64,000 nucleotides of DNA, taken from assembly GCA_030668825.1 (NCBI GenBank), contig DAOVET010000004.1, forward strand, positions 296 to 64,295, read 5' to 3'. Position numbers and translations under genes: made by a program. Position 1 is the stretch's first letter. Every line of letters begins with the position of its first letter. This DNA is from Candidatus Heimdallarchaeota archaeon. Lineage in GTDB: Archaea > Asgardarchaeota > Heimdallarchaeia > Heimdallarchaeales > Heimdallarchaeaceae. Positions 14,701 through 63,980 of the stretch are shown piece by piece. The notes beneath the pieces were generated by a model. The model ran no database searches and was not told where the DNA came from. It worked only from the letters and a program-made list of their open reading frames with translations.

Positions 14701-15376
14701 AGTTATCTGTACAGTTAGATAATATTTTGCTAGAATTTGTTACATCTGGAAAAACAGCACCCTCATCTTTTATAAGAAACAAGTCCAGCTCTACTGTACC
14801 CAGTGATCCAGAACCTATGATATCCAGATAAATATCAGTTCCATAAAATTCTGCATAGTCCCAAGAGATAGTAAACCCTTGAGCTATTGCTAAATATTGA
14901 TCATGGGCTAGTTCGTCATACCCACTTTGAGTAGCTTCAACAACAAAATATTCAGGTATTGATTCTATTTTCTCAATACCATACGCTAGTTGATTAGAGT
15001 ATCCTGCTATATCATCGATTGAAAATTGATTAGAACTCAAGGAAGAATAGGTAGGTTTTGTCAAATTTAGTTCAAATGAATGATAAAGGCCAAGATCATC
15101 GTTTATTGTAAAATCATCACCTGTACCTATATGGTCATCTACTGGTATATATGAGAGATGTGGGAACTTTAAATACTCTCCATTGTTTAGATTGATATTT
15201 GTTGTGAAACTTGAATCTTGTAGCGTATTAGAGTTTAAAGAAAAGTCTGTTGCTTCATAGTAATTTATCCCATAAGAAGCAAGAGCTGGTGATATAAGAA
15301 AAATATACATTAATAGCATACATAGTAATTTATTTTTTATTATTTTATTAGCCATCTGACCAAAAACCCCTTTCAA
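11744..15376 (-). CDS. Giant single-pass surface protein (receptor-like paralog 3): signal peptide, N-glyco-rich ectodomain, TM, cytoplasmic Roadblock-like module
   Basis: 1210 aa. Signal peptide 'LLCMLLMYIFLISPALASYG'. The ectodomain is Asn/Ser/Thr/Tyr-rich with dozens of N-x-S/T sequons. TM 'IPIYIFVIIGIFALVAMVTPLTVFI' is followed by 'RRKLDKDRR' (positive-inside). The cytoplasmic ~230 aa ('ITKLIIVHSATGLPVYEMDLGSE...ITGFLTAIASMG...FTLYTFSE') ends in 'YKIATVRF'. Probable ATG start at M8. Confidence 0.8.
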   Translation of the reverse strand: MKGVFGQMANKIIKNKLLCMLLMYIFLISPALASYGINYYEATDFSLNSNTLQDSSFTTNINLNNGEYLKFPHLSYIPVDDHIGTGDDFTINDDLGLYHSFELNLTKPTYSSLSSNQFSIDDIAGYSNQLAYGIEKIESIPEYFVVEATQSGYDELAHDQYLAIAQGFTISWDYAEFYGTDIYLDIIGSGSLGTVELDLFLIKDEGAVFPDVTNSSKILSNCTDNSFTNSNPVPSAAASDLTYYDFDDVILDKGKYFIVANLSTLDLTDPAQTFAWRSKNGAPFLGESYRWDSSGPTWDNCTVNVDYTLAPKLLPLNQFQEPLSFTNPADIELEDNSDPITSLNQIILGTGIHDLESTESVRIVFNNSYIFYIALNIVSNYRVSNSSHSEYSIDWNLSWDIPSINFSSYSNPNRSHVIYTPDDWSNSDFSLIANGSLPMTGWKDTQGYSFDLSSLLVSDTYQGASLNFTTTSQNYLFDSALNSNSYNLGYWEANGTHATGYNGSTVLVDIFIKDSFMQDVLTGSVNFSLYDPNGAIVPIKNESDYTNIIFTDLTSYTVLETTQISAGKYSINTVFDPSINGTDIEGDWTAVCLWQNGTEVGFYTLRISVSKSTTASFFWEETLGSSDFTNSSISIDRINQESVKAKIYYNNVSDPFYSEDGTPIKAAPVAYNTSWGTSGFFSYIGPYYETNILINAVVGNYSITLMATGIYLETHTFTFDVRVFHTFTITPSAGGDFEAYYSDQESYVQFTVEDTSNSSSPVIPDEIAFYLDEMLIKTTEYVVTEFAVTSLIQLELFSGREGRDLVPGSYSIRISVSKQDFIVNYGQENATTTVNLEILTTPTTIDIVSSDDEVHWGNETTITFYYVDTINPENIPEASFNISLDLQAEDAEIIQQTENLGLYSVTFRIFEPQETSINIFVTINKTGYETKSNQLIKSISIINPEEGIPIYIFVIIGIFALVAMVTPLTVFIRRKLDKDRRAEKALFARIYGLYESVLSITKLIIVHSATGLPVYEMDLGSEISLDPSLITGFLTAIASMGVELRGDKTGSVKRLQYRNFLVAGSESGQFTLYTFSETDLNEEIEEKLTVISDWFAKMFSNINEEWDGSTEVFRINLQGITEKIMKEIHLWIFYPFTVSPYKQAEIEELNGLQKRLIEYITDGDNMTISRIFDELDDVKIEKGLPIIFEFIENGILIPFFDAYKIATVRF

Positions 15377-15477: not shown

Positions 15478-18400
15478 TCAGAATCGAACAGTAGCGATTT
15501 TGTAGGCATCAAATTCAGGTTCTAGGATGTTAGTTTCAATTAAATCAAAAATTATTGGTAATCCTTGTTCCAATTTAACATCATCAAAATCTTCAAAAAG
15601 ACGACTTATTGTTATAGTGTCACTTTTACCTATATAATCAATCATTCGTTTCCTTATTCCTGACATTTCTTCAATTTCTTTGTTCTTATAGGGTGAAACT
15701 CTGAATGGATAGAATATCCAGAGATGAATCTCTTTCATGATTTTCTCTGTTATTCCTTTAAGGTTTAATCTAAACGGCTCAGTTGAACCATCCCAATCAG
15801 CATCTATTTGTGGAAACATCATGTCAAACCAATCACTAATTACTGTAAGTTTCTGCTCTATTTCTTCATTTAATTCAGACTCTGAAAATGTATAAAGAGT
15901 AAAAAAACCAGATTGTGATGCTGTTACTTGGAATTCTTTGTATTGTACTCTTCTTACACCACCAGATCGTTCTCCTCTCATTTCACTTCCTACTGATGAA
16001 ACAGCTGAAAGGAATCCTGAAATTAATGAGGGGTCTACATCAATCTCTGATCCAAGATCCATTTCATAAACAGGTAAACTTGTCGCTCTGTGAACTATAA
16101 TCAGCTTTGTTATTGATAGTACCCCTTCATAGAAATTGTAAGTTCTTGTGAAAATATCTTTTTGAGCTCTTTTTTCTCGGTTTTTTCTTCGTCTTAATAG
16201 TAAAATCGATGGTGCAATCACAGCTCCTGCGCCAAGAACACCGATTATGATAAAGAGATAAAAAGGCATTTTGGAATCTGGATCAGTTGGAATATTAATC
16301 TGAATGGAAGCAAGTCTAAAATTATCAATTGATTCATAATTTGATACTGAAATTGAAACGAAAACATTCAATGAAGCAACTGTTGGTTGCAGTATTTTTA
16401 CAATTACAGTGTAAACTCCTGCTGATTCAGAGTCTAACCATACTTCTACACCTTCAATATCTACGCTAAGTTCGATTTCAGACTCAGTGAGTCCTGTAAC
16501 CTTTGTAGAATGATCAGTATCCATAACACTGAATTTGAGTTCTGATTGAGTATTAGTATCCATTTCATCTATATCTTGTTCGATAACAATAGCTATTTTG
16601 ATTGGGATAATTTCCAATTGTGGGAACGACAAAGAAGCGCTGTTCTGCCCCATTTCATCAAAGAAATTTGTTTTTGTAACTATAACTTCTATACTGTGAC
16701 TTCCAACCTCAAGACCTAATGATTGTGTATCTAGCTCTATCTCCATTATTCCATCCAAAAGTGAAAGATTGAATTCTTCACTAGTCAAGTTAACGGCATT
16801 AAGTATAACAGTTATTTCCTCAGGATATAGCTGAACACTCATATTTGAGATGTCAATTAATTCAAAACTAATAGCTGTAGGATCTGTATAAGTAATTTGA
16901 CCTGGACTTTGAATCATATTAATCCTAAATATGTGGACAATTTTTACTGGAAATTGCAATGTGTGGTTTTGTAGAAATTGACCATTTGCGAATAATTGAA
17001 CATTCGAGGATCCTTCTGGTGCATTCGTTAATATTTCTGTATCATATGAAGAAGTATTGAAGTTTATTGAACCTGAATCAAACCAACTTGTAGAATATGA
17101 GACTAAAGCAGCTGTTATAGGTGTTCCATTTCCTACAAAAAATGGGTCACTAATATTATAGTAATTCACTCTAATCCTTATACTCTCGCCGCTAATACGA
17201 TTTATTTCTGTACTTGGATTATTAATCCAGATATCACTATCTACTTGTTCTTCCCATTCAAATTCAGCAAATGTAGGTTTTACTACAGTAATCGTTCTAG
17301 CATAGAAGCCTACAGCAGTACCATTAGTCCATTCAGAGGTAACTGTCCAATGGCCTTCAGTGTCGCTTCCATAAACAGAGGGATCAAACGAAGTACTAGC
17401 TGAGTACACTCCAGGACTGGACTGAGAGGATATAATTTGAGAATAGCTAGTTGTATCTACAAATGAGATATTTGAATCAAGATTTGTTTTCATAACTATT
17501 ATTTCACCATCTGGAGAATAAAGTGTAAAGTTTAATTGACCAGTGATGATATCAGAAAGCAAATCTTCCTTAACTGATATCACAGCATCTAAATCAGACC
17601 CGTAATAACCTATAGCATGAGTTGTATTAGTTGTCCAGTACCCTAAATTGAATGTTTCAGAGGATATACTTGAATCATAAAGGTAATTCCTACTAGTTGA
17701 ATAGAATACAAAATCACTTTCGTAATAATTACTGCCATGAAGCAGAACATCTAAATCTAGCGTATGAATATTAATATCTACAGAACTTACAATTGGAATA
17801 GAGTCATTAATTAAGAAAATCTGACTGAGGTTATTCCATCCGTTGGGAATAGTTATCGATTGTAATCGAATTGGATTGGTGTATTGATATATATCAACTA
17901 AAGGAGTAAACCAATTGATACTCCAAGAAATACTGTAATCATAAAAAGAAGAATTGATAGCTGTATAAAATGACTGACCCATAAAAGATCTACTATAAGT
18001 ATATGGATTGTTCATTTCTATATCAACTGAAGTGTTTGAAGTTATTGTATGAATTCCAACTCCACTTATCACTTGGTTAAAAGAGGTTATATCTACTCCA
18101 TCATCTCTCAATTGTACTTCAGCTGGATCCGAGAATCTCATTGCTGTACCATTTGCATATGCAGGAGTTAACTCTGGAGCTAAGACATAATCCTTATTGA
18201 CTAATGAAGACCATACTGAACCATCGTGAGTATACGAATCTGCATAAACTGATCCTTGTTGGCCTCTCCAATTGAAACCATCTCCATCGGTTGCATCATA
18301 GCTAGAAGCATTAGCTACTACATAGTATTTACCTGTTGAAAGAGTTATATCATTAAAATCGTAATAAACCGTATTTCCTGATGTACTTTCATTAATTGGA

Positions 18401-19062
18401 TTCAATACGGTATAAGGTCCATTCGTTGCACTACTCAAGATGGATGACATATCTGGTTTTCCATCGGAGATATTTGCATTGACTATGAATAAATCTAATT
18501 CATCACCGCCAATAGCATTTTCAATGATAAGATAAATTTTAGCACCAGAAAAAATAGCAGTTGGCCATGTTACATCAAAACTCTGAGCTATTCTTATAGT
18601 TGATGAATCAAGAATCTCATCTTTATTCTGAATTGTCTGTTGATAGTCGAAGTACTTGCTTGCAGAAATAGCTGTTATATTATATTGAAGCGAATCTGTG
18701 GTATAATCTGTAATACTAGAAATTGTGTAAGTATCTGAATAACTATTATCTGTATTAAGTGATACATTCACTCCTTGATTAACTTGCAGGTTATCTGAAA
18801 TAATAAAATCATCACCACTCCCATCGGAGTTTGTAATGGGTATGTATGAATATTTCAGTGATTGTTCTAGATTTGGACCTTCCAAACTATTTAGGAACCC
18901 ATTCTGAGAATGAATTAAGTCATCTTCAATGTTTTTGCTATGGTTATTAATTGAAAAAAATCCATTTGAAATACTATTTGATGTGAAAGGTAAAACGGGG
19001 ATGATTATAAAAGCTATGAAGGTTAATGATAAGAGCTTTCTAAATCTGAAATAATTTAACAA
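15478..19062 (-). CDS. Giant single-pass surface protein (receptor-like paralog 2)
   Basis: 1194 aa with the same architecture. Shares conserved ectodomain blocks with its neighbours ('GYWTTNTTHAIGYYGS', 'NFTLYSPDGEI', 'FDPSVYGSDTEGHWT...WTNGTAVGFY'). TM 'FYLFIIIGVLGAGAVIAPSILLL' + 'RRRKNREKR'. Cytoplasmic module ends in the identical 'YKIATVRF'. Confidence 0.8.
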   Translation of the reverse strand: MLNYFRFRKLLSLTFIAFIIIPVLPFTSNSISNGFFSINNHSKNIEDDLIHSQNGFLNSLEGPNLEQSLKYSYIPITNSDGSGDDFIISDNLQVNQGVNVSLNTDNSYSDTYTISSITDYTTDSLQYNITAISASKYFDYQQTIQNKDEILDSSTIRIAQSFDVTWPTAIFSGAKIYLIIENAIGGDELDLFIVNANISDGKPDMSSILSSATNGPYTVLNPINESTSGNTVYYDFNDITLSTGKYYVVANASSYDATDGDGFNWRGQQGSVYADSYTHDGSVWSSLVNKDYVLAPELTPAYANGTAMRFSDPAEVQLRDDGVDITSFNQVISGVGIHTITSNTSVDIEMNNPYTYSRSFMGQSFYTAINSSFYDYSISWSINWFTPLVDIYQYTNPIRLQSITIPNGWNNLSQIFLINDSIPIVSSVDINIHTLDLDVLLHGSNYYESDFVFYSTSRNYLYDSSISSETFNLGYWTTNTTHAIGYYGSDLDAVISVKEDLLSDIITGQLNFTLYSPDGEIIVMKTNLDSNISFVDTTSYSQIISSQSSPGVYSASTSFDPSVYGSDTEGHWTVTSEWTNGTAVGFYARTITVVKPTFAEFEWEEQVDSDIWINNPSTEINRISGESIRIRVNYYNISDPFFVGNGTPITAALVSYSTSWFDSGSINFNTSSYDTEILTNAPEGSSNVQLFANGQFLQNHTLQFPVKIVHIFRINMIQSPGQITYTDPTAISFELIDISNMSVQLYPEEITVILNAVNLTSEEFNLSLLDGIMEIELDTQSLGLEVGSHSIEVIVTKTNFFDEMGQNSASLSFPQLEIIPIKIAIVIEQDIDEMDTNTQSELKFSVMDTDHSTKVTGLTESEIELSVDIEGVEVWLDSESAGVYTVIVKILQPTVASLNVFVSISVSNYESIDNFRLASIQINIPTDPDSKMPFYLFIIIGVLGAGAVIAPSILLLRRRKNREKRAQKDIFTRTYNFYEGVLSITKLIIVHRATSLPVYEMDLGSEIDVDPSLISGFLSAVSSVGSEMRGERSGGVRRVQYKEFQVTASQSGFFTLYTFSESELNEEIEQKLTVISDWFDMMFPQIDADWDGSTEPFRLNLKGITEKIMKEIHLWIFYPFRVSPYKNKEIEEMSGIRKRMIDYIGKSDTITISRLFEDFDDVKLEQGLPIIFDLIETNILEPEFDAYKIATVRF

Positions 19063-19169: not shown

Positions 19170-22100
19170 CTATCCTTTGAATGAAGAGAATTGATTTCGG
19201 AGCAGTATTCCTTTATTGACTAGTCTGAATATAGATGTAAGATTATCTTCCATTTCATAATCGCTGAATTTCTTAAGTAAGACACTGATAGATGTTTCTT
19301 CTTTTTTCTTGACAAATTCTGCAATTCTTTGATCATGTTTCTCCAGTTTTTTTATTTCACCTGATTTTTGTTTGTTAAATTTGAGAGGGAAGTAAATCCA
19401 TAGATAAAGAGATTCTGAAACCTTATCTTCAATGAGTTTCTTCTTAGAACCGAACACTTCTTTCTTTCCATCCCACACTTTTCCTTTGGTTTTGAAACTA
19501 TATTCAAACCACATTATCAAGTCAAACAACCTTACTTGAAATTCCTTTATGACTTCATTTGAAGAGAAGAGAAAAACTGTATAGGTTTCTGAACTAGCGC
19601 CTGTAACAACAAAATTCCTATATTCGAGTCGTTTAATTTCTCCAGTATCACTACCTCCAAGGGTTTTGCCCATGGTTTCGATAGCACCCAGAAAACCTAA
19701 TACAAGAGCGGTTTCTATTGCATGTTCACTTCCTATATCTAACTCAAATACAGGTAAGCTAGTTTCAGAATGAATAAATAATATTTTTCGCATAGAAAGA
19801 ACACTATCTAGCAACCCTACTACTTTAGCTTTACTCTGCACATCTACAATTGGAGCTTTGGATTTCCTGGATCTTGGAATTGCTATTACAGCTATTAAAA
19901 GAGTTATTAGGAGAATACCCCCAACAACTATGATAATTATGAGATAAGGGGGAAGTTGTTCAGTTGTTTTGACTTTAACTGTGTACTCAAAACTACTCTG
20001 TTCATCAACATATCCAGCTCTGAAGTTTGCTTTAGAAACAGTCACGTTTACTTTGTGTGTTCCTGAGGTTTGCATACTCATTGTTAATACAACCCAATCT
20101 CCATCGATAGTCTGCTCGTAAAAACCTTCAGCTATAAGTACATCATTGATATAGACACTGACATCATCAGGATAAATGACACTCTGCAATGGATCTGTCA
20201 TATTCAATAATTTGAACCTTAGAACTGCTTCATCAGTAGAATTAATCTCAATAGAATCCTGATCTACAACTAATGAGAACAAGTTGAAAACTTCTAGATT
20301 TAGTTGTATCTTCCTGGATTTGCACTGCGAGCTAGAAGCTTCCAAAGTTATTGTATGAAAACCCGCATCAATATCTATTGGAACTGTTGAATTGAAAAAT
20401 ATTCCATTCTCACTAAAATTACTAGAAAGACCCCAACTTGTAGTATAAGAAACAGTTGCATTTACTAATGCTTGCCCCATACTACCAAAGAAAGGTTCAC
20501 TTATAGAGTAGAAATCTGAGCGAGCTCTTAACGAATCACTGTTCATCCTTAAGATTGTATTTGAGGTAATATAGGTCCATACATCACTATTTGGAAGTGT
20601 TTCCCAAGAAGGATTGAAAACTATCTCAGTTTCAACAAATATTTTTTTAGCAAATAAACCAGCTTGAGTACCATTGGTCCAATAAACAAAAGCTGTCCAT
20701 TCACCGGTCATATCAGATCCATATACAGATGGATCAAAAGTTAAGTTTGAGGTGTATAATCCCGAACCACTAGAGAATATTCCATTCTTTGTATACGAAG
20801 AAATATCAATATACGAGAGGTTTGAGGGAAGAGCTATCTTTTGAGGTAAAATATTTCCATTTGGATCAAACAAAGTTACATTTATACTTCCAGTATCCTC
20901 ATTATTCTGAATATTAATCTCGAAATTCACTGTTGAACCTTCATTTCCATATGCATCGATAGTATCAGTAGTCCAGTATCCTAAAGAGAAGATATCTGCT
21001 GGTCCGGAATCATCTGAAAGAATCAGTTGTTGAACATAATTAAGACTCGTAGTTTCTAATCTAAATGTTCCTGCAGAAATATTAAATCCATAATTAACTA
21101 AATATCCATCAATCGTTTTCTGAGAGCTAAGGATATCAGTATCATTATAATAACAAGTAGAACTATCAGACCAGTCAGTAGGAGTGAATATTAAACTGGA
21201 TCTTTCCATACTAGGGTAGGGAGAATAATCAGCTTCTGAAGTTGACCATTGTAATGTCCATATATTAGAGTAAATACCAGATGTTGAATTGATTGCTGTA
21301 AAAGAAGTATCAACTGTCACATCTTTTGAAAAAGAATAAGAATTATTGAACACTAACTCCACTGAAGTATCACAGCTAAGCAAATGAAAACCAGTAGTAG
21401 AAATTGGAGATGTGGTTGTTAGAACATCTGAAGAATTATCTTGCAAAGCTATTTGGTTTAAATCACTAAAAGTCACTGCTGTTCCATTATCATAACTTGG
21501 AAGAAGTTGAGGAATAAAGGTATGATCTACCAATTTGAGGTTCCAAACACCAGAATTGTCCAAATAATACGTATCACTGTCTAGTGGTGCAGTACTATAA
21601 CTATACCAACGGAAATTCCATGGACTTCCAGCAACTGTCAGATTTGCAACTACAAAATATTTTCCGTTTTCTAAAACTATATCTGTGAAATCATAGAATG
21701 GGAGATTATCAATAGTACTAAAAGGAAAAGGATTAGCATTTGTATATGGACCATGAACATCACTGGAATAGATATAGGACATATTTGGTTTACCTGTTAG
21801 TTCATCAGCTTTTACAAGAAACAGCTCCAACTCTGTTGTACCAACATTCCCATCATCATCAAAAAAAAGTTTAGCACCTGAAAACACTGCATAATCCCAA
21901 TTTATATCGAAACTTTGAGCTATAGCCCATCTAGAAAAAGTATCACCTATCTCTATTGGTGTATCTCCTTCAATTTCTATTGGATACAAATCAGTTTTTG
22001 CAGTGATGCTTGAAATATTATAATTAAGTCTAAAAGGGTCATAACCTGTGATTGTATCAATCGTATAATTATCTTCAAATTGCTCACTTGTTACATTGTA

Positions 22101-22364
22101 AGAAAGGTTAAGAGTTTGATAGTCATTTACAGTTAGAACATCTTTCCCTGATAAACTACTTCCTACTCCAGATACATTAGTGATTGGAGTGTAAAGAAGT
22201 TCAGTTTCAGAAATAGAGATAGGATTATATTGTTCTAAAGTTATAATATCATTTTTCTCTTGAGAGTCTGATTTAGAAACAAGTTGTTCTTGATAAATTG
22301 ATAAACTAAGCACTATAAGAAACACAACAGAATAAATTTTGACTTTATGCGCTACTCTTTGCAT
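19170..22364 (-). CDS. Giant single-pass surface protein (receptor-like paralog 1)
   Basis: 1064 aa. Signal peptide; the ectodomain has the same conserved blocks ('GYWTTDTIDAYGNEGS', 'NVTLFDPNGNI', 'FDPSVYGSDMTGEWT...WTNGTQAGLF'). TM 'LIIIIVVGGILLITLLIAVIAI' + 'PRSRKSK'. Cytoplasmic module 'KILFIHSETSLPVFELDIGSE...LGFLGAIETMG...YTVFLFSSNE'. Confidence 0.8.
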   Translation of the reverse strand: MQRVAHKVKIYSVVFLIVLSLSIYQEQLVSKSDSQEKNDIITLEQYNPISISETELLYTPITNVSGVGSSLSGKDVLTVNDYQTLNLSYNVTSEQFEDNYTIDTITGYDPFRLNYNISSITAKTDLYPIEIEGDTPIEIGDTFSRWAIAQSFDINWDYAVFSGAKLFFDDDGNVGTTELELFLVKADELTGKPNMSYIYSSDVHGPYTNANPFPFSTIDNLPFYDFTDIVLENGKYFVVANLTVAGSPWNFRWYSYSTAPLDSDTYYLDNSGVWNLKLVDHTFIPQLLPSYDNGTAVTFSDLNQIALQDNSSDVLTTTSPISTTGFHLLSCDTSVELVFNNSYSFSKDVTVDTSFTAINSTSGIYSNIWTLQWSTSEADYSPYPSMERSSLIFTPTDWSDSSTCYYNDTDILSSQKTIDGYLVNYGFNISAGTFRLETTSLNYVQQLILSDDSGPADIFSLGYWTTDTIDAYGNEGSTVNFEINIQNNEDTGSINVTLFDPNGNILPQKIALPSNLSYIDISSYTKNGIFSSGSGLYTSNLTFDPSVYGSDMTGEWTAFVYWTNGTQAGLFAKKIFVETEIVFNPSWETLPNSDVWTYITSNTILRMNSDSLRARSDFYSISEPFFGSMGQALVNATVSYTTSWGLSSNFSENGIFFNSTVPIDIDAGFHTITLEASSSQCKSRKIQLNLEVFNLFSLVVDQDSIEINSTDEAVLRFKLLNMTDPLQSVIYPDDVSVYINDVLIAEGFYEQTIDGDWVVLTMSMQTSGTHKVNVTVSKANFRAGYVDEQSSFEYTVKVKTTEQLPPYLIIIIVVGGILLITLLIAVIAIPRSRKSKAPIVDVQSKAKVVGLLDSVLSMRKILFIHSETSLPVFELDIGSEHAIETALVLGFLGAIETMGKTLGGSDTGEIKRLEYRNFVVTGASSETYTVFLFSSNEVIKEFQVRLFDLIMWFEYSFKTKGKVWDGKKEVFGSKKKLIEDKVSESLYLWIYFPLKFNKQKSGEIKKLEKHDQRIAEFVKKKEETSISVLLKKFSDYEMEDNLTSIFRLVNKGILLRNQFSSFKG

Positions 22365-54189: not shown

Positions 54190-56004
54190 CTATTTAAGAC
54201 CTAATTTTCTAAAATCAAAATCATACATTTTAGATACTTCTAAGTTTAGTTTGTCTTCAATAGCTTTCACTTCGTCTTCTTCACCATCATCAGATTTCTT
54301 GACTATCTTTAATAATTCCTTAACTAAGGGAGTTATCTCATTTCTTATTTCAAACCTAGGAATGGGAATTTTCTTCAAAGGATAGGAAAAAAATTCCAGC
54401 ATTCTACCTTTCCTTTTACCTGCTAAAGAATACCAGAAGTGAATGAAATCACTGTTTAGAATTCCTAGAATCGAATATATATCTGTACTTTCAACTGGAA
54501 GAATTGCATAAATATCTGTAGCAGCAAATGACCCATTTTCATCAAGAGCAAATTTTGTTGTTAGACTTCTATAAGGACAAAGAATTCTCTTTTCCTTCGA
54601 CAGAAACAAGTCTAAATTCCTATATACGCTATAATCAAACCACCTAATTTTTCCTGATTTCATTAATTTCTGCCTATCTGGTCCAGATTTTAATCTCTCT
54701 TTATTAATCAACAGATATTTGTTTGTATTTGGATAGTTATCTAGTGAATCAATCTTTGATGGTAAAATAGCTTGTTTTTCTACTTTCTCTGTAATAAACC
54801 ACTTTTGTACATCACTGTTTGTTACAAAGGGAACAAGTACATCTGGTTCAATTGAATATTGTGTAACTTTGGATTTTGGAATTACAAATATATCTTTTAC
54901 ACCTGGAGATAAACCTTGAAAAACTATTGAGATGTCGCTTAATTTTTCCATTGAAGTGTTATTTTCTAAACTACGTAAATACTCATTATAAGGCGATATT
55001 ATCCATTTCTCTTTCCCTAAATAGGATTGTTTAATTGGAAAGAATTGCTCATTGAATAGCTGATTAATTTTTTCTTTTTGAATGATTGACTCAATGAAGA
55101 AATTTTTTGCTGCTGAAAAAGTTTGAGAAGGATGGCTTTCTTCTAAGGTTAAGATACAAGTGGAAATGTTTAACCATTTTCCCTCATCTTTGAAAATCTT
55201 ATTGCCTTCCAAATCTATAATTTCTAAGATATTCCTTTTCAGGAGATCTTCTCTAAGTTTGTCTGCGTATTTGTTTTCAATCCAGTAATTAGGAATGATG
55301 AATGAAAAAATGCCTCCCACATTCAACATATCAATAGATTGTTTCACAAAATAATAATAAATATCAGAAGAGGAACGAAAGAAATTCTTCCACAAATGCG
55401 AAGATTTCAAATAATCATACAAAATCTGAGCATCTTCATCAATCAAGACCATTTTTTTTAGATTGAAATAAGGAGGATTTCCAATTATAACATCAAATTT
55501 ATTGTTTTCACCGAAATTATCTTTCCAAGAAAAGGGATTGAGTTTCTCTGCTTTTTTTATGCCCAGAATATCAAGAGCATCTAAACTCACTATACTATTT
55601 CCACATTTTAGATTTGGTAAATCACTGTTCTTTAGTAAAGGATACTGCTCTTTCAAGATATTTTTACAGGTATCTAAACTTCCTTTATCCAGTTCTATTC
55701 CATAAATATTTGAAGATGCAAAATGATGAAAAAACTCATTTTTCTTTTCATTTTCTACTGAATCGAATCCTATGAGTATAGAGTTTAATTTTTTAAGTAG
55801 TCCAACAATGAAATTTCCAGAACCAATTGCAGGATCACAAAATCTAAGTTTGAGAATTGAGTTTTGAAAATCTATGAAAGAATCAAGAACAAGCTTATTA
55901 TTCTCTTGAAGATGATAAAAGACCCTCTCTACCATGAAATCAACAATAAAACTAGGAGTGTAGAAAGCTCCTGTTTGTTTCTTTACTCGATTAAGTCCCA
56001 TCAT
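54190..56004 (-). CDS. Gamma-class N6-adenine DNA methyltransferase (Eco57I/TaqI-like), apparently orphan
   Basis: Motif X 'GAFYTPSFIVDFMV', motif I 'FCDPAIGSGNF', motif IV 'DVIIGNPPY', then a ~350-aa target-recognition region. No endonuclease motifs, and none in the neighbours. Confidence 0.8.
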   Translation of the reverse strand: MMGLNRVKKQTGAFYTPSFIVDFMVERVFYHLQENNKLVLDSFIDFQNSILKLRFCDPAIGSGNFIVGLLKKLNSILIGFDSVENEKKNEFFHHFASSNIYGIELDKGSLDTCKNILKEQYPLLKNSDLPNLKCGNSIVSLDALDILGIKKAEKLNPFSWKDNFGENNKFDVIIGNPPYFNLKKMVLIDEDAQILYDYLKSSHLWKNFFRSSSDIYYYFVKQSIDMLNVGGIFSFIIPNYWIENKYADKLREDLLKRNILEIIDLEGNKIFKDEGKWLNISTCILTLEESHPSQTFSAAKNFFIESIIQKEKINQLFNEQFFPIKQSYLGKEKWIISPYNEYLRSLENNTSMEKLSDISIVFQGLSPGVKDIFVIPKSKVTQYSIEPDVLVPFVTNSDVQKWFITEKVEKQAILPSKIDSLDNYPNTNKYLLINKERLKSGPDRQKLMKSGKIRWFDYSVYRNLDLFLSKEKRILCPYRSLTTKFALDENGSFAATDIYAILPVESTDIYSILGILNSDFIHFWYSLAGKRKGRMLEFFSYPLKKIPIPRFEIRNEITPLVKELLKIVKKSDDGEEDEVKAIEDKLNLEVSKMYDFDFRKLGLK

Positions 56005-56091: not shown

Positions 56092-56877
56092 TTATTCAAA
56101 CTCAAATTCTGCTACTTCACCACCAACGACATGATAGTGAATATCAATCTTTTGATTTTCAGGTATCTTTTCTTTCTCCATTTCTTCAGCAATTTCCTCT
56201 TTTAATCTTGCAAATTTAGCAGCAATTTCTGTCAAGATACTAAGAATCTGAAAAAGATGTCGAGGTTTAGAAATCTTCATATCCAAAGGAAAATTGGATA
56301 TACTTCCAAGAGGATAATTCTTATTCATCGGCTTAGCTCCCTTTTTGAAAGCTTTTTCAGCTGTTTCCAGATTGTTTAACATCATACTCTCAAGATAGTG
56401 ATTATAAGCAATACTCCTTCTTTCCTTATCTATAATAATACCCAGATCAGGATGTTCAGAAAGTAGTTTCATGTGCATTTGAGTGATTTCTTCATCTGTC
56501 TGTTCTAATATTCTTTTGTACGCTTCTTGCAATTTTGTTTCTAATATCTCAAGAGGTGGTTCCCCAAAATTCCTTTCGGCTACCTTAGAAAGTTCATAAT
56601 AAATTCCTTTATTCTCACGTGTTTTCTTGTTATCAACAACTAGTAATTCAGGTTCTCTGGTTAAATCTTTCAAATGATGATAAATTGTAGCTTCATTTTT
56701 CCCTAAAATTTTAGCTAGTTTCTTAATGTTTGCTGAACCAAAATTGCTGATAGCCATAATAATACCATACCTGGTCTCAACTTTGTAAACTTCATTTACT
56801 CTATCAAGAATCTTTTTCCCTTGTGCCTTTAGTTTCTTGTAGTCAACTTCGATTTTTTCGGATTTGTTCATTTCCAA
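56092..56877 (-). CDS. Winged helix-turn-helix (ArsR-like) domain protein
   Basis: 'YGIIMAISNFGSANIKKLAKILGKNEATIYHHLKDLTREPELLVV' is wHTH-like. The remaining 150 aa are helical with no motif. Confidence 0.5.
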   Translation of the reverse strand: MEMNKSEKIEVDYKKLKAQGKKILDRVNEVYKVETRYGIIMAISNFGSANIKKLAKILGKNEATIYHHLKDLTREPELLVVDNKKTRENKGIYYELSKVAERNFGEPPLEILETKLQEAYKRILEQTDEEITQMHMKLLSEHPDLGIIIDKERRSIAYNHYLESMMLNNLETAEKAFKKGAKPMNKNYPLGSISNFPLDMKISKPRHLFQILSILTEIAAKFARLKEEIAEEMEKEKIPENQKIDIHYHVVGGEVAEFEFE

Positions 56878-57023
56878 GTCGCCCTTTAATCCTCTCTAAT
56901 AACTCTTTCATCGAAACTATATAAATTTAACCGTCAAATTAATTTGATGCCGAAATGTTTAATAGTGTTTATCGAAAACACAATTTGATGATTAAATTAT
57001 TATGATATTCAAACTTTTAAATT

Positions 57024-58364: not shown

Positions 58365-59837
58365 GTGCCAGAGCTAAGATTGCTTGAAAAAGCTACTACC
58401 CGACTAAAAACCAACAATTACGCTCTTCTTATCCAGATTGGCATATGCCTTGTTCTTTTTCTCACTTCTGTATTTGTTCGAATAGCTCTTCGTACTTGGT
58501 TTTTGTCTCGCTACGACACTAGCTCTTATTTTTCTCTTGAAGGGTACCAATGGGAAGTCTATAATGATCCTGAAGTATATTATCAGCATTATCTTTATGC
58601 ATTCAAATATGAATCTTGGAATCCTTATGCTTTCGACAGAGAATTTCCACTTACTGGTTATGTTTATGGTCCTTATTTTGTTTTCTTCTTAGTAATTATT
58701 TCCTATTTTATTGATATCTTCTATCCGGGATTACCTCGTCTAGACAGAGCCTGGATGACCGTTACTTTTACTCCTCTGATCTTTGATTCTATCACTGCAG
58801 TTTTCATCTATCTTATATTATTAAAGAAACCACAAAATGGTAAAAGAAACAAGTTAAATCAGTTCTACTCGCTCTTTGCAGCTGTTATTTTCATTTTCAT
58901 GCCTTTGGTTTTATTCTACAATGATTTTATATTTCTCAATTCATACATGTTCACTACTTTCGCTGTAATCTCTTTTTATTATTTACAAAAATCTAAATAC
59001 AAGCTTTCAGCTTTCTTCATTGCATTATCAGTTCTCACTAAACTTAACGCGCTATTTTTAGTACCTCTCTGGTTTCTCTATCTCTTCAGACTCGATAGAA
59101 AAATTGCTCTTAAATATCTAATTTATTTAATAATTTTCTTTTCCCTTCTCTCATTTCCCTGGATTTTAATCAAACCTTTCAAGTATGTTTGGTTACAAGT
59201 ATGGCCTGGAGGAACGTATAATACTATATTCTCTATTTCACCCACATTCAAAAGATGGCCAACCACGCCTTTTCATGCGCTATTATTTTGGGGGATGGAA
59301 GGATTAGCAAAAGTCTATTATTATCTCAATATGGCTTATGTTCCCTTGCTTCTATTCCTTATTCTCAGCTATTTTACAGTTCTACTCAAAGCAAACCATT
59401 TTCAAAAAAAAGAGAGCTCATTCATCTCTTTTCAAGCGATGTTTATCATAGGTACTCATGTTTTTCTCTCTCGAGGAAACTACAAGTATTATGATTCATT
59501 CTTAATTCCTTTTGTTGTTCTTGCTTTAGCTTCCAGAGCTCAGGATTTTGATAAGAAATGGGTAGGGTTGGGACTTTTTGTAGTATTCGCGGGATGGATT
59601 TCTTTACTTAGCATATGGATCATAGTTAAAGTCAAATGGTTACACATTTTCTACACTATCCTTATGATGCTAACCATGGTTGTCACTTTTGATATCCCTC
59701 TTCACACAGCTTTTTACAGAAAAACGAATTACAAAGATCTCTTTGACTACCTTAAAATTCAACTAAAAGAAATAAAGGAAAATAGATTTAAGAAAAGGGA
59801 AAAGAGAAAAGAAAAGAAAAATTCTAAACACAAGTAG
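58365..59837 (+). CDS. Polytopic membrane protein, possible GT-C-fold glycosyltransferase
   Basis: 490 aa, ~12 TM helices, aromatic-rich loops, lysine-rich C-terminal tail. No catalytic motif recognised; the call is by topology only. Confidence 0.4.
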
Positions 59838-61908
59838 CTTTTGTTACGAGCCTTTCCCATTTTTCATCGACAGTATCTTGAATTTCAATCAATTTCTTCT
59901 TCCATTCTGGCTTGAATAAATGTCTGAATCTTCCTTGAGGTTTTAAGTAATCTTCAATTGGTAATTTTCTATCTGGATTTTTAGCTAATCTAGAAGAAAT
60001 TCCGGTTAAAACCCAATCTTCTTTATAAGTGTAAAACAATGGAAAGAAACAGGTTTTCACAGCTAATTTTGCAATTTCCATGGACATATCTGGAGCATAC
60101 CTTTGCCCTAGATTACATGGGGAATCAACTAACATAAAGGCAGGACCATCGTGTTTCAGAGCTGCTTGTACTTTAGCCATAAGATCTCTTGGATAAGCTG
60201 GACTTGCTGTAAATGTTGGGATATCATGTGCAGCCATAATCTCAGCTAAGGGTTTTTGCCATTCTATTTTACCCGGAATAACAGTTCCAGGTGGGGTTGT
60301 TGTTGTTGCAGCTCCTTGAGGAGTACCACTAGAACGTTGAATGCCTGTATTATGAACTACAATACCATCTGCAATAAAATTATGTTCATCCTCAACTCTA
60401 AGGTCAATTGTTGGTTCTTCTTTAATGAATTCGATAGAAACAATTTTCTCTGAACTGAAGTATTCATTATCAGCTAAGAAATCCCTTTGTTTAGCTTGTG
60501 AAAGATATTTGTTTATATTTGGTTTCTTCTTTTTGCTAAAACAAACATAACCATAGGTACTATCTTCTAATAACTGTCTATAAACTACAAAGGTCCCTTT
60601 TTTCTTTGTCTGTTGGTGGATTTTACCAACTCTATAATTTATGGTTTGTAATAACAATCTTAATGTTTTGAGTAATTCATAACTTGCAGATACATACCTA
60701 TTACTTTTACCTATAGAATATCCATCAGATTGCATTAATCCCTTAACGAAGGCTTCCTTTTCTTCATAAGGTAAAGTAAAGACCCATGAAGGAATAATTT
60801 TATTTTTGGCGCCTTTACCAAAATCAAGACTATCAACAAAACGTGCAAGATTTACGGAATAGAGATAGACATCATTTTGATGAGCTGTACTGGGTTCCAA
60901 ATCAAAGAGTTTTTTCGACAAGAATACTAACCTTGATCTAGCTTCAGAGTTTTCTGGAAATGAAAATCCTGTTTCTGCTTTATGTGGTCTAGTCCAACCA
61001 TCACCTACGTATAGTCCCAGAAATTCCATCAAATCAGGATTACTCTCTTCTGGAAGTTTTATTTCATTAATTTTGTGAACTTTATAATCTCCTTTCTTTG
61101 AAATTTTAATTTCCTTAAAAGAATAACGCTTCCCATCATTCATATCTTTTAAAACTATTATTTCATCACCAGGTTTTAATTTTTCTAAAGTTTTCCAAAT
61201 CAACTTGTTTTCATAATTTTTCCGACTTCGTTGCACAGTTAAAAATGGGTGATTTATTGTTGTTTTTATCGAATGATGTAATGTTTTTAATTCATACACT
61301 TCTTTTATTCCGTTATCAAATATTCCACTACATTCTTTCAAAACTAAATCATTAGTATTTTGATCAAAAGCATAAACTAGTTCCCCCAATTGGATATCAG
61401 TAACTCGCTTAAGACCATCCTTTGTCATAATATGAGTATCTAGGCTTAAACAATTCATGTATGCGCCATTATTGTAACATACGTAAAGGAAGTCATGACC
61501 CCGTTCTATAGCCCCAGAAAGGCTCTGGAGCCCAATATCATAAGTCCCACCATCACCTCCGAATACTATCATGTTAACATTGCGCTCTCTCATTAATCCT
61601 TTTCTTTGCATTGACTTCATAGCTTCTATTGCTCCAGAAGCTGTTGCTGCGGCATTTTCGAATGCATTATGTAACCATGGTACATCCCACGCTGTGTATG
61701 GATAAACTGTGGAAGCTACTTCTAGACATCCTGTTGCATTAACTATCATCATTGGATCTCCAAGAACCTTTGCAGCTAATGTGACTTGTCTTGCCATTGT
61801 TCCAGCTCCACATCCAGCACATAATCTGTGCCCAGATGTGAATACTTCACCAAGTTTTGACCATTCTTGTAAATCTTTTACAGATACTTTTGGTAATACT
61901 ATCGCCAT
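59824..61908 (-). CDS. porB: 2-oxoacid(pyruvate):ferredoxin oxidoreductase beta subunit (TPP-binding), containing an intein
   Basis: Extein: 'CAGCGAG' Cys cluster, '[39 protein letters not shown]' | '[10 protein letters not shown]' (the canonical PorB 'YMNTGxQ' TPP/Mg motif is split). The spliced extein is 326 aa, typical for PorB. Fourth gene of the porGDAB operon. Confidence 0.85.
60349..61452 (-). mobile_element. Intein (368 aa) with LAGLIDADG homing-endonuclease domain, inserted in porB
   Basis: Begins '[13 protein letters not shown]' (block A, Cys1) and has 'TINHPF' (block B). Two LAGLIDADG motifs: '[13 protein letters not shown]' and '[14 protein letters not shown]'. Ends '[10 protein letters not shown]' followed by Thr+1. 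The insertion lies exactly between N and T of YMN|TG. Codon positions were verified on the DNA (TGT at 61450-61452, AAT at 60349-60351, ACA Thr at 60346-60348; minus strand). Confidence 0.82.
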
Positions 61909-61915
61909 CTTTTCT

Positions 61916-63142
61916 TCACTTCCTATATCCTACCCAGTCAGTTGTTGAATTTATTCCAATATTATTGTACTCTTTTGACATTTCGTAAACTTCTTCAATT
62001 TCTGGTAGAGTCAAAACTCTTCCCCCTAGTCCATTTATGTATCCGTGGAGCGATGGAACATTTTCTTTTCCATACAAAGCTGATGCAATATCGGTTTGAA
62101 CTATGGTCCCAGGTGACCCAAATGTTGCTGATCTATCTAAGATAGTTGCAGCTTTTATTCCACTTAGCGCTTGAAACATATCCATAGATGGAAATGGTCT
62201 GAACAGTCTAATTTTGAGAGCTCCTACTTTTTCTCCTTTTGCCCTTAAGCGATCAACGACAGCTTTAGCATTTCCTGCTGTAGCTCCATATGAAACAAAA
62301 GCATAATCTGCATCTTCCAGTTGATATTTTTCTGTTATTTCCATTTTTCTTCCGGACAATTCACTAAACTCTTGCATAGCATCCTCCGTTACTTTGTATG
62401 CATTTTGCATTGCTTCTTCTTGTTGCCTTTTTATTTCCATATAATAATCTTGTAAAACTAATGACCCAAAGGTTTTATTTTCATCAGGACAAAATCTATC
62501 TCTTACTATTCTTGAAGCTGGAATAAAGTCGTCTACTTGTTGTTTACTTAGAGTTTCAACCCTTTCTAATGCGTGTGTAACAATAAAACCTTCAATACCA
62601 AACATTGCTGGTAACATGACATCAGGATGTTCTGCTATTTTGAAAGAGAGTATCGTTTCATCATATGCTTCTTGTGCTGATTCACCAAACAGAGAGACCC
62701 ATGATGCATCTCTACAAACGAGTTGATCTGTACATTCTCCATGAATATTGATTGGTGCTGAAAAAGCTCTATTCGCTACTGCTAGAACTATAGGACATCT
62801 CATTCCTGATGCAACATACAATATTTCATACATCAGAGCAAGACCAGCTGATGCAGTTGCTGTAAACACTCTTGCGCCTGTTAATGAGGCCCCTACACAA
62901 GCTGACATCGCACTATGTTCTGATTCAACTGATATAAAACTTGTATCGACCTCGCCATTATTAACAAAATCACTGTATCTTTCGGCAATTATTGTCTGTG
63001 GAGTTATCGGATATGCTGCTACAACATCAGGATTTACAAGTTTAGCTGCATGAGCTACAGCTTCATCTCCTGTCATTCCAACTACTTGTCTTACTCCACT
63101 CATCTTGTAACCCTCCTCATTTCGATAGCATCTGCTGGACAA
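61916..63142 (-). CDS. porA: 2-oxoacid(pyruvate):ferredoxin oxidoreductase alpha subunit
   Basis: '[35 protein letters not shown]' is the PorA N-terminal signature. The true start is probably the ATG at 63101-63103 ('MSGVRQ'), preceded by 'gaggaggg' 7 nt upstream and overlapping the porD stop (ATGA). Confidence 0.88.
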
Positions 63143-63417
63143 TGTTTACTACAAATTCCACATCCTTTACAGAAAGCCATGTCACATTCAGCCTTTAAGT
63201 CATCATCCATAATTATTGCTGAATCTGGGCAATAGTAATAACAATTCATACAACTAATACATTTTTCTTTATCTATGATGGCTTTAAATGCAGACCAATC
63301 TCCAGTCTTATACCCATAAGCTGTATGGTAAGGAACTGTTCCCCCCATCGGGAGTTGGGATGATCCCCATTTTTCTTTAGTCCATCTAGAAAATTCATCT
63401 GGTGCTTCTTTTGTCAT
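63100..63417 (-). CDS. porD: 2-oxoacid:ferredoxin oxidoreductase delta subunit (2x[4Fe-4S] ferredoxin)
   Basis: Two CxxCxxCxxxCP motifs: 'CISCMNCYYYCPDSAI' and '[16 protein letters not shown]'. The start codon overlaps the porG stop (TAATG). Confidence 0.85.
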   Translation of the reverse strand: MTKEAPDEFSRWTKEKWGSSQLPMGGTVPYHTAYGYKTGDWSAFKAIIDKEKCISCMNCYYYCPDSAIIMDDDLKAECDMAFCKGCGICSKHCPADAIEMRRVTR

Positions 63418-63980
63418 TATTCCACCTCTTCAAATGCTCTATTAATAGCAACAACATTTTTCTCCCCCAAAACACCTTTAAATCTGTTTAGAGTAACTTT
63501 TTTTAAGCTCTCTATCTCTACCAATTTTGTAACTTTGATTAACGCTCCTAACATTACCAAATTAGGAACATTTCTCCCGATTTCCTCTGTTGCGATTATT
63601 GACCCTGCTACCTTGTAGATGTTTGCATGAACCCCCTCAAAATATTTAACAAGTGAATCTTTTTCCCCATCATAATTCACTACAATTGTCCCCCCATCCC
63701 TTAATCCTTCAACTACAGGAACATCATCTAATAATGTAGGATCTATGACAACCACAATATGGGGTTCATAGACTTCAGTTTTTTCGTAAAAAGGTTCTGG
63801 TGAAATTCGAGCATAAGAAGTTACTGGAGCTCCAGCTCTTTCTGGACCAAAATTTGGAAAAGCATGCACATATTGTCCTTCTAAGATAGCTGCTTCAGCT
63901 AGTAATCTGGATGCAGTAACCGCTCCTTGTCCACCTCGACCATTAATTCTTACATCAGTGATTTCAGCCAATATTTTCAC
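63417..63980 (-). CDS. porG: 2-oxoacid:ferredoxin oxidoreductase gamma subunit
   Basis: 'VRINGRGGQGAVTASRLLAEAAILEG' is the PorG N-terminal glycine-rich signature. GTG start at 63980, or a TTG 3 codons downstream that has a 'gggtga' Shine-Dalgarno at good spacing. Confidence 0.85.
   Translation of the reverse strand: MKILAEITDVRINGRGGQGAVTASRLLAEAAILEGQYVHAFPNFGPERAGAPVTSYARISPEPFYEKTEVYEPHIVVVIDPTLLDDVPVVEGLRDGGTIVVNYDGEKDSLVKYFEGVHANIYKVAGSIIATEEIGRNVPNLVMLGALIKVTKLVEIESLKKVTLNRFKGVLGEKNVVAINRAFEEVE

Follow-up and report, generated by a model that had tools for sequence, protein, structure and literature searches.

Why the gene for the beta subunit of a 2-oxoacid:ferredoxin oxidoreductase should be interrupted, in frame, by 368 additional codons is the question raised by one locus in a 64,000-nucleotide stretch of DNA from a Heimdallarchaeaceae-like archaeon (Candidatus Heimdallarchaeota archaeon, assembly GCA_030668825.1, contig DAOVET010000004.1); the whole of this stretch is referred to here as the window. 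The original prediction, made from the letters of the sequence, took the insert for a complete canonical intein with a homing endonuclease. Protein profiles, a modelled fold and conserved residues now support that view and assign the element to class 1. The pattern of its occurrence points further: very probably, this is an actively cycling homing intein that moves horizontally between hosts.

The insert and its place in the enzyme

The open reading frame (ORF) comprises 694 codons, as first reported, and 326 once the insert is taken out; the position of the insert and its 368 residues starting with CLSLDTHI are likewise exactly those given originally. The precursor, used as a query, retrieved 760 matches, and the 118 full-length proteins (∼660–700 aa) found among the best 120 of these provide the residue counts used throughout. 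The parts of the gene, as predicted, are the following.

59824..61908, minus strand: PorB-like precursor ORF with the intein, 694 aa (ORF list, Pfam and NCBIfam profiles)
61453..61908, minus strand: N-extein part, 152 aa, ending ...GAYMN; collinear with positions 1–1471 of the intein-free contig L001 at 93%
60349..61452, minus strand: predicted class 1 intein with LAGLIDADG homing endonuclease, 1104 nt, 368 aa, precursor residues 153–520
61078..61452, minus strand: N-terminal splicing (Hint) region, intein residues ∼1–125 (approximate boundary), with block A Cys1 and block B T65-x-x-H68; TIGR01445 covers 1–72
60463..61077, minus strand: putative homing endonuclease domain, intein residues ∼126–330 (approximate boundary); LAGLIDADG_3, modelled helices and strands, dN/dS 0.05–0.11
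60994..61020, minus strand: LAGLIDADG motif 1, LGLYVGDGW, with predicted catalytic Asp151; Asp kept in 115 of the 118 homologues
60718..60747, minus strand: LAGLIDADG motif 2, with predicted catalytic Asp243; Asp kept in 117 of 118
60349..60462, minus strand: C-terminal splicing region, intein residues ∼331–368, with block F Asp350 and block G GIVVHN; TIGR01443; invariant in 118 of 118
59824..60348, minus strand: C-extein part, 174 aa plus stop, starting at the presumed nucleophile Thr (TGIQRSSG...); matches L001 1469–2165 at 94%

The insert reads CLSLDTHI...GIVVHN and is followed by TGIQRS. At the 5′ junction ...TAC ATG AAT (Y-M-N) is followed by TGT (Cys1) at 61452–61450; at the 3′ junction AAT (Asn368) at 60351–60349 precedes ACA GGC (T-G). 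The terminal residues that had been singled out as competent for splicing, namely Cys1, the penultimate His, the terminal Asn and Thr at +1, are all in place, and C1, T65, H68, D350, H367, N368, T+1 and G+2 are invariant in every one of the 118 homologues, block B being T65-I-N-H68 in the window. Pfam Intein_splicing (PF14890) recognizes the precursor with 56.8 bits (E = 3e-15) and the isolated insert with 58.9 bits against a cutoff of 35.8. The two LAGLIDADG motifs already pointed out are matched by LAGLIDADG_3 (PF14528), which scores 27.1 bits on the precursor and 29.5 bits on the insert (cutoff 22.5). The C-terminal intein model TIGR01443 (intein_Cterm) is passed at 27.1–28.6 bits against 15.6, and its N-terminal counterpart TIGR01445 falls slightly short at 22.6–24.1 against 24.5 bits. 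Other NCBIfam matches are to the intein portions of intein-bearing equivalogs: DnaB, AtpA, IF-2, GyrA, Tes and RtcB. Modelled with AlphaFold2 together with 8 flanking residues on each side, the insert has a mean predicted local distance difference test score (pLDDT) of 86.4 and a predicted template-modelling score (pTM) of 0.86. When compared with the Protein Data Bank (PDB) by Foldseek, the model finds as top matches inteins that bear an endonuclease: TliVMA and PhoVMA (TM 0.62–0.72, E down to 7e-23), PI-PkoII and PI-SceI. Partial matches are to mini-inteins and to I-DmoI, a free-standing LAGLIDADG enzyme. Judged by its sequence and its modelled fold, the insert is a class 1 intein, complete in all its parts and equipped with an endonuclease of the two-motif LAGLIDADG kind.

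Two other assignments were considered and rejected. Both the class 3 intein and the bacterial intein-like domain are at odds with the presence of Cys1, of a canonical His-Asn terminus followed by Thr and of an endonuclease, and the WCT triplet is absent. Within the window, a hidden Markov model built from the family matched the ORF at 59824–61908 and no other intein; a faint match to the ORF at 56095–56895 (E = 4e-4, 11.8 bits) was taken as chance.

Removal of the insert, which had been proposed as a check on precise excision, restores an unbroken enzyme. In the precursor the NCBIfam PorB match is split into two stretches (319 bits), whereas the spliced extein of 326 aa gives a single match covering model positions 12–298 of 300 with 340.4 bits. 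The spliced protein scores 70 bits with Pfam TPP_enzyme_C (cutoff 21.9), and its alignment to the solved beta subunit 9bt4_C of pyruvate:ferredoxin oxidoreductase (PFOR) runs without a gap across the splice junction (E = 2e-71). The thiamine-diphosphate/Mg motif lies in the N-extein, with GDG at 118–120 and NN at 146–147 in spliced numbering. The cysteines of the CAGC, GC and PC motifs fall in line with the [4Fe-4S] ligands of 9bt4_C and 1b0p and are intact, those of CxxC and GC being encoded in the N-extein; therefore, the spliced host protein appears to be functional. PorB is the top family, yet 340.4 bits is below the 405-bit cutoff of the PorB equivalog NF008819; the VorB-type model NF008818 scores lower still (278 bits), and the alpha and delta subunits also lie under their archaeal Por cutoffs. 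The beta subunit is probably that of a POR/VOR-type 2-oxoacid:ferredoxin oxidoreductase, with PorB as its probable identity; given a score under the equivalog cutoff, pyruvate is a likely, if unproven, substrate.

A metagenomic contig may a priori carry an assembly chimera, a pseudogene or an insertion that does not splice and inactivates its gene, and nothing beyond this general possibility speaks for such a non-functional insert here. The reading frame is unbroken, no splicing residue is missing, extein and intein are both under strong purifying selection, and the same architecture recurs in no fewer than 118 independent proteins of full length as well as in 193 GTDB species. Furthermore, a 46.6-kb ENA contig (L002) also bears the intein and is collinear with the window across the insert, at 93% identity over 14 kb. 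An artefact or a dead gene is barely credible in the face of these observations.

In spliced numbering, the insertion point (denoted ↓) separates Asn152 from Thr153 within YMN↓TG, a segment that is invariant. The original prediction had the intein splitting the cofactor-binding motif of the enzyme. An active-site location stands, but the motif proper is left untouched: the insertion falls outside GDG...NN, five residues past the Mg-ligand Asn. Asn152, the residue at −1, corresponds to Asn996 of the Desulfovibrio africanus PFOR in a HMMER alignment (with the numbering of 7plm giving the offset) and to Leu123b of Sulfolobus tokodaii 2-oxoacid:ferredoxin oxidoreductase 1 (OFOR1) by a spacing rule (GDG at 89b–91b, Mg-ligand Asn118b), the assignment being based on PMC5020499 and on alignment numbering. 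In the D. africanus enzyme Asn996 lines the pyruvate pocket and rotates upon substrate binding, and the position of Leu123b in S. tokodaii OFOR influences substrate specificity (PMC5020499). Because the −1 residue aligns with these pocket positions, the intein is placed by alignment at the active site, in the substrate pocket.

Such a precursor would be translated as 694 residues, and the Hint domain would then excise itself in the standard four steps: an N-S acyl shift at Cys1, trans-esterification onto Thr+1, cyclization of Asn368 assisted by His367, and an O-N shift. Ligation of ...GAYMN to TGIQRS... would complete the pocket for substrate and thiamine diphosphate, so that the beta subunit would be without a formed active site until splicing had taken place.

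Occupied, empty and decayed alleles

A look for empty alleles in related genomes, another check put forward at the outset, yields a clear picture. A search with the spliced extein retrieves many intein-free Heimdallarchaeaceae proteins of 321–327 aa at 75–85% identity to the window extein, and one of 326 aa (P0121) that is 95% identical. Contig L001, which encodes the latter, is collinear with the window and shows a clean gap of 1104 bp equal to exactly 60349–61452: L001 1–1471 corresponds to window 62923–61453 (93.1% nucleotide identity) and L001 1469–2165 to window 60351–59655 (93.8%), and the empty gene and the window gene minus its intein have the same length, 981 nt. In a Heimdall metagenome-assembled genome (MAG), GCA_030668875.1, the syntenic locus (L083) harbours an intein-free gene. 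There the shared neighbours are a histone-deacetylase-like gene, CarS, an ATPase, a small GTPase and porGDAB, together with an N6-methyltransferase, a rhodanese and deoxyhypusine synthase. A co-conversion tract was also sought around the insertion point: identity between the spliced and the empty gene dips to 0.78 in 60 nt at the junction, and this was dropped as evidence because an equal dip occurs at nt 120–180.

In a neighbour-joining (NJ) tree of Heimdall-type exteins, the terminal branches carry a mixture of full, mini and empty alleles. Empty and full alleles meet in exteins that are 99.7% (P0130 and P0005), 99.4% (P0125 and P0008) and 98.4% (P0137 and P0010) identical, and the empty P0125 is 99.1% identical to P0052, which holds a mini-intein of 146 aa. 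This element and the one in P0068 (162 aa), both in Heimdall-type PorB, have lost the endonuclease. In P0243 the intein is of full length and both LAGLIDADG Asp residues are replaced (ASG, TNG).

The ratio of non-synonymous to synonymous substitution rates (dN/dS), obtained by the Nei-Gojobori method between the window and eight Heimdall relatives, is 0.08–0.12 for the intein, 0.05–0.11 for its endonuclease domain and 0.05–0.09 for the extein. The endonuclease is constrained as strongly as the enzyme that carries it, which argues for continuing homing rather than for a relic in decay. The window copy might nonetheless be fixed baggage, inherited vertically, that still splices but has an inactive endonuclease: some members of the family are without a catalytic Asp or without the entire domain, and activity of an endonuclease cannot be read from sequence alone. 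Against this, both catalytic Asp are kept in the window, dN/dS in the endonuclease domain is 0.05 relative to the closest relative, L002, and targets are available in the form of the empty allele with its 95% identical protein. A fixed relic is accordingly regarded as unlikely.

The same low dN/dS admits a different interpretation, in which the PorB intein has been domesticated as a conditional switch: splicing that responds to redox state, oxygen or a cofactor would delay formation of the pocket and gate the maturation of an oxygen-labile enzyme of central metabolism. Judged by dN/dS, constraint over the entire intein equals that on the host enzyme. Two cysteines without a catalytic role, Cys41 and Cys304, are near-invariant (117 and 114 of the 118 homologues), and insertion in the substrate pocket makes splicing an all-or-none event. 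The hosts, all of them apparently uncultured lineages, are presumably anaerobes, an assumption drawn from their phyla and from the oxygen-sensitive type of enzyme. If true, a conditional switch would explain why the element, including the two near-invariant cysteines, is constrained like the enzyme. However, Cys is absent from positions −1, −3 and +1, where it would be needed for the disulfide traps known in redox-sensitive inteins, and retention of the endonuclease catalytic residues is explicable by homing only. Above all, empty alleles abound in exteins that share 98–99.7% identity with occupied ones, and mini-inteins are common: the host thus fares well in the absence of the element, and a regulatory switch is disfavoured on this account. 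Such a role is given a very low probability, and the cycling, homing element is preferred.

Movement between lineages

The insert occupies the identical site, YMN↓C...HN↓TG, in all 118 full-length homologues, which come from NCBI, JGI, ENA and Logan assemblies, with Heimdallarchaeaceae, Woesearchaeota, Nanoarchaeota, Omnitrophota and Aerophobetes among the named sources of the matches listed. When one genome per GTDB species is scanned, carriers of the YMN↓TG intein are confirmed in no fewer than 193 species, all represented by uncultured MAGs or single-amplified genomes. Archaeal carriers are Heimdallarchaeota (including AB_125), Woese-, Nano-, Iain-, Micr- and Aenigmarchaeota and Bathyarchaeia; bacterial carriers are Omnitrophota, Aerophobetes, Cloacimonadota, Planctomycetia, Parcubacteria, Clostridia and Vermiphilus. 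Among 1.84 billion representatives, searched exhaustively, inteins of PorB show identities of at least 53%, and outside the PorB family identity drops to ∼30–33%, with inteins of SufB, T4-like portal proteins and a subtilase. Because of this sharp fall, from at least 53% to ∼30%, the PorB YMN↓TG intein is, by sequence, an allele family of its own. No relative was found in IMG/VR when it was scanned for viral vectors with the intein alignment.

A second, unrelated intein of 340–341 aa occurs in the PorB homologues P0246 and P0255, where its junctions read GDGx↓CYS(E/N)DTEI...SLNGN↓SYDIG. It stands together with the YMN↓TG intein in one polypeptide, and the pair brackets the thiamine-diphosphate motif.

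The histories of intein and extein appear from sequence comparison to be uncoupled. Of 6903 pairs drawn from the 118 members, 90% are more similar in the intein than in the extein (means 65% versus 56%), and the window intein is 70–75% identical to copies in DPANN archaea whose exteins are ∼50% identical to its own. The converse is encountered as well: exteins with 92–96% identity may hold inteins just 72–74% identical, and between the window and L005 synonymous divergence (dS) is 0.43 in the extein and 1.31 in the intein. In an NJ tree of inteins the Heimdall copies are united in a single clade that lies within those of Woese- and Nanoarchaeota (DPANN), the Cloacimonadota copies fall within the DPANN archaeal clade and a Bathyarchaeia copy sits among bacterial ones. 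The host gene, on the other hand, looks vertically inherited, as the nearest intein-free exteins beyond Heimdallarchaeaceae belong to other Asgard lineages: Kariarchaeaceae, Hodarchaeales and Thorarchaeota. An origin of the Heimdall intein copies from a DPANN-type lineage is thus suggested, but the direction of transfer is indicative only, since the trees are unbootstrapped and MAG labels fallible. Several bins labelled 'uncultured Methanosarcinales' (loci L010, L014, L020, L023 and L029) carry inteins that group with Woese- and Nanoarchaeota copies; these cases may reflect unreliable labels or further transfers. Base composition was also tried as a sign of foreign origin: the comparison is uninformative because the intein (30.5% GC) is close to the genome average, and the compositional outlier is the host gene (extein 39.7%, window 32.8%), not the intein.

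How one element could enter such different hosts may be seen at the DNA level. The sequence coding for AYMN↓TGIQR is near-invariant across hosts, with an information content of 1.57 bits at codon positions 1 and 2 and 0.64 bits at the third, and this would explain the ability of the element to cross domains. A candidate endonuclease target can be taken from the empty allele L001: TATATGAAT↓ACAGGAATCCAACG. Once freed by splicing, the intein endonuclease would cut intein-free alleles near TAYATGAAT↓ACNGGNATHCARCG, and repair from an occupied copy would then install the element there. The pattern of alleles shows such a cycle in progress, with gain, decay to endonuclease-dead and mini forms, and loss.

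Several considerations weigh against this account of an actively homing element. Splicing and cleavage of the DNA are both deduced, the grounds being residue conservation, the modelled fold and the pattern among populations. The element in its entirety is under very strong purifying selection, somewhat more so than expected for purely selfish DNA, and constraint of this strength leaves room for an added role at the level of the host. The trees are NJ trees, rooted at the midpoint and without support values, and labels of MAGs may be wrong, as illustrated by the 'Methanosarcinales' bins that cluster with DPANN. It is a remote possibility that the transfers from DPANN to Heimdall lineages and from archaea to bacteria trace physical contact between the cells of episymbionts and those of their hosts.

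Genomic setting, significance and known systems

The porB-like gene is the last in a gamma-delta-alpha-beta operon for a four-subunit 2-oxoacid:ferredoxin oxidoreductase, entirely on the minus strand, and the other three genes lie directly upstream. They were assigned with Pfam and NCBIfam.

61916..63142, minus strand: alpha subunit gene (POR_N and PFOR_II) of the por operon
63100..63417, minus strand: delta subunit gene (2x[4Fe-4S] ferredoxin-like) of the por operon
63417..63980, minus strand: gamma subunit gene (POR domain) of the por operon

Converging on porB is an ORF of 490 aa on the plus strand (58365–59837), apparently a multi-pass membrane protein, which has no Pfam match and overlaps the porB 3′ end by 14 nt. 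It adjoins porB in L001 and L002 too, and is replaced by an MFS transporter in L083. At the other end, beyond the right end of the window, a gene for a small GTPase of the Arf/Ras/Roc family is located immediately upstream of the por operon in L002 (7150–7707) and L083 (3259–3819).

Elsewhere in the window, three tandem paralogous giant ORFs of 1210, 1194 and 1064 aa are found on the minus strand at 11744–15376, 15478–19062 and 19170–22364. No Pfam family matches them at E ≤ 1e-4. Their mutual identities are 42% and 36%. In each, the N-terminus is hydrophobic, a long region is variable, a segment near residue 950 looks membrane-spanning and a C-terminal domain of ∼250 aa is much better conserved. 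Another minus-strand ORF, of 604 aa (54190–56004), has a counterpart in L002 with N6_Mtase, Eco57I and TaqI_C Pfam matches, and is probably a fused restriction-modification enzyme of type IIG-like organization or a methyltransferase.

The mechanism proposed for the PorB intein is ordinary; its host gene and its spread across domains are unusual. According to the main text of the survey by Novikova et al. (PMC4760082), intein hosts belong to replication and repair (COG category L) in 61.5–66.9% of cases and to nucleotide metabolism (F) in 8.3–21.7%, other categories being much rarer, and the same main text makes no mention of pyruvate or ferredoxin oxidoreductase. The original prediction regarded a central-metabolism oxidoreductase as an uncommon host: measured against this classical range the judgement holds, but the allele itself is widespread in MAGs. 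A full-text search of the literature, which did not extend to InBase, found no description of an intein in a 2-oxoacid or pyruvate:ferredoxin oxidoreductase. Automatic labels do exist: JGI has 'pyruvate/2-oxoacid:ferredoxin oxidoreductase beta subunit/intein/homing endonuclease', and UniRef has DOD-type homing endonuclease. What emerges is a new host and a new allele of a well-known kind of intein, and the understanding of how inteins work is left unchanged.

The known host range of inteins is nevertheless widened to the active site of an enzyme of central carbon and energy metabolism, and a clean natural example of transfer across domains becomes available in which every stage of the homing cycle is sampled. 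The element also offers a new compact pair of intein and endonuclease with a predicted target of ∼20 bp that is conserved in both domains. There is a warning for annotation as well: beta subunits of ∼690 aa are called 'hypothetical' or 'thiamine pyrophosphate-dependent enzyme', and such labels can lead astray when the metabolism of Asgard and DPANN genomes is reconstructed.

Among inteins of solved structure, TliVMA and PhoVMA of Thermococcales (PDB 7QSU, 7QSS and 7QST) are the best matches (phmmer E = 3e-11; Foldseek E = 7e-23, TM 0.69–0.72). Analogously to the PorB intein as modelled, they consist of a Hint domain interrupted by a two-motif LAGLIDADG endonuclease and have Cys1 and a C-terminal His-Asn; in contrast, identity is 18–20%, the host is the catalytic subunit of the V/A-ATPase and the insertion is at the P-loop. 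PI-SceI of yeast VMA1 and PI-PkoII of the Thermococcus kodakarensis polymerase Pol (2CW7), the archetypes of inteins that both splice and home, are found with a Foldseek probability of 1.0. The mechanism inferred for the PorB intein is that of bifunctional inteins of the PI-SceI type. These two are only 13–16% identical to it, larger, equipped with extra DNA-recognition regions and hosted by an ATPase and a DNA polymerase, and their activities have been shown experimentally whereas those of the PorB intein are predicted.

The nearest relatives outside PorB are the SufB inteins (P0242, P0253 and P0260), which are ∼32–33% identical over the full 368 aa. Here too the host is a non-replicative protein tied to iron-sulfur metabolism, but protein and insertion site are different. 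The GDGx↓S/T intein of P0246 and P0255 presents the opposite combination: it resides in the same host protein and cofactor region, inserted directly after the Mg-binding GDG, and yet it is unrelated in sequence, has a penultimate Gly instead of His and is absent from the window.

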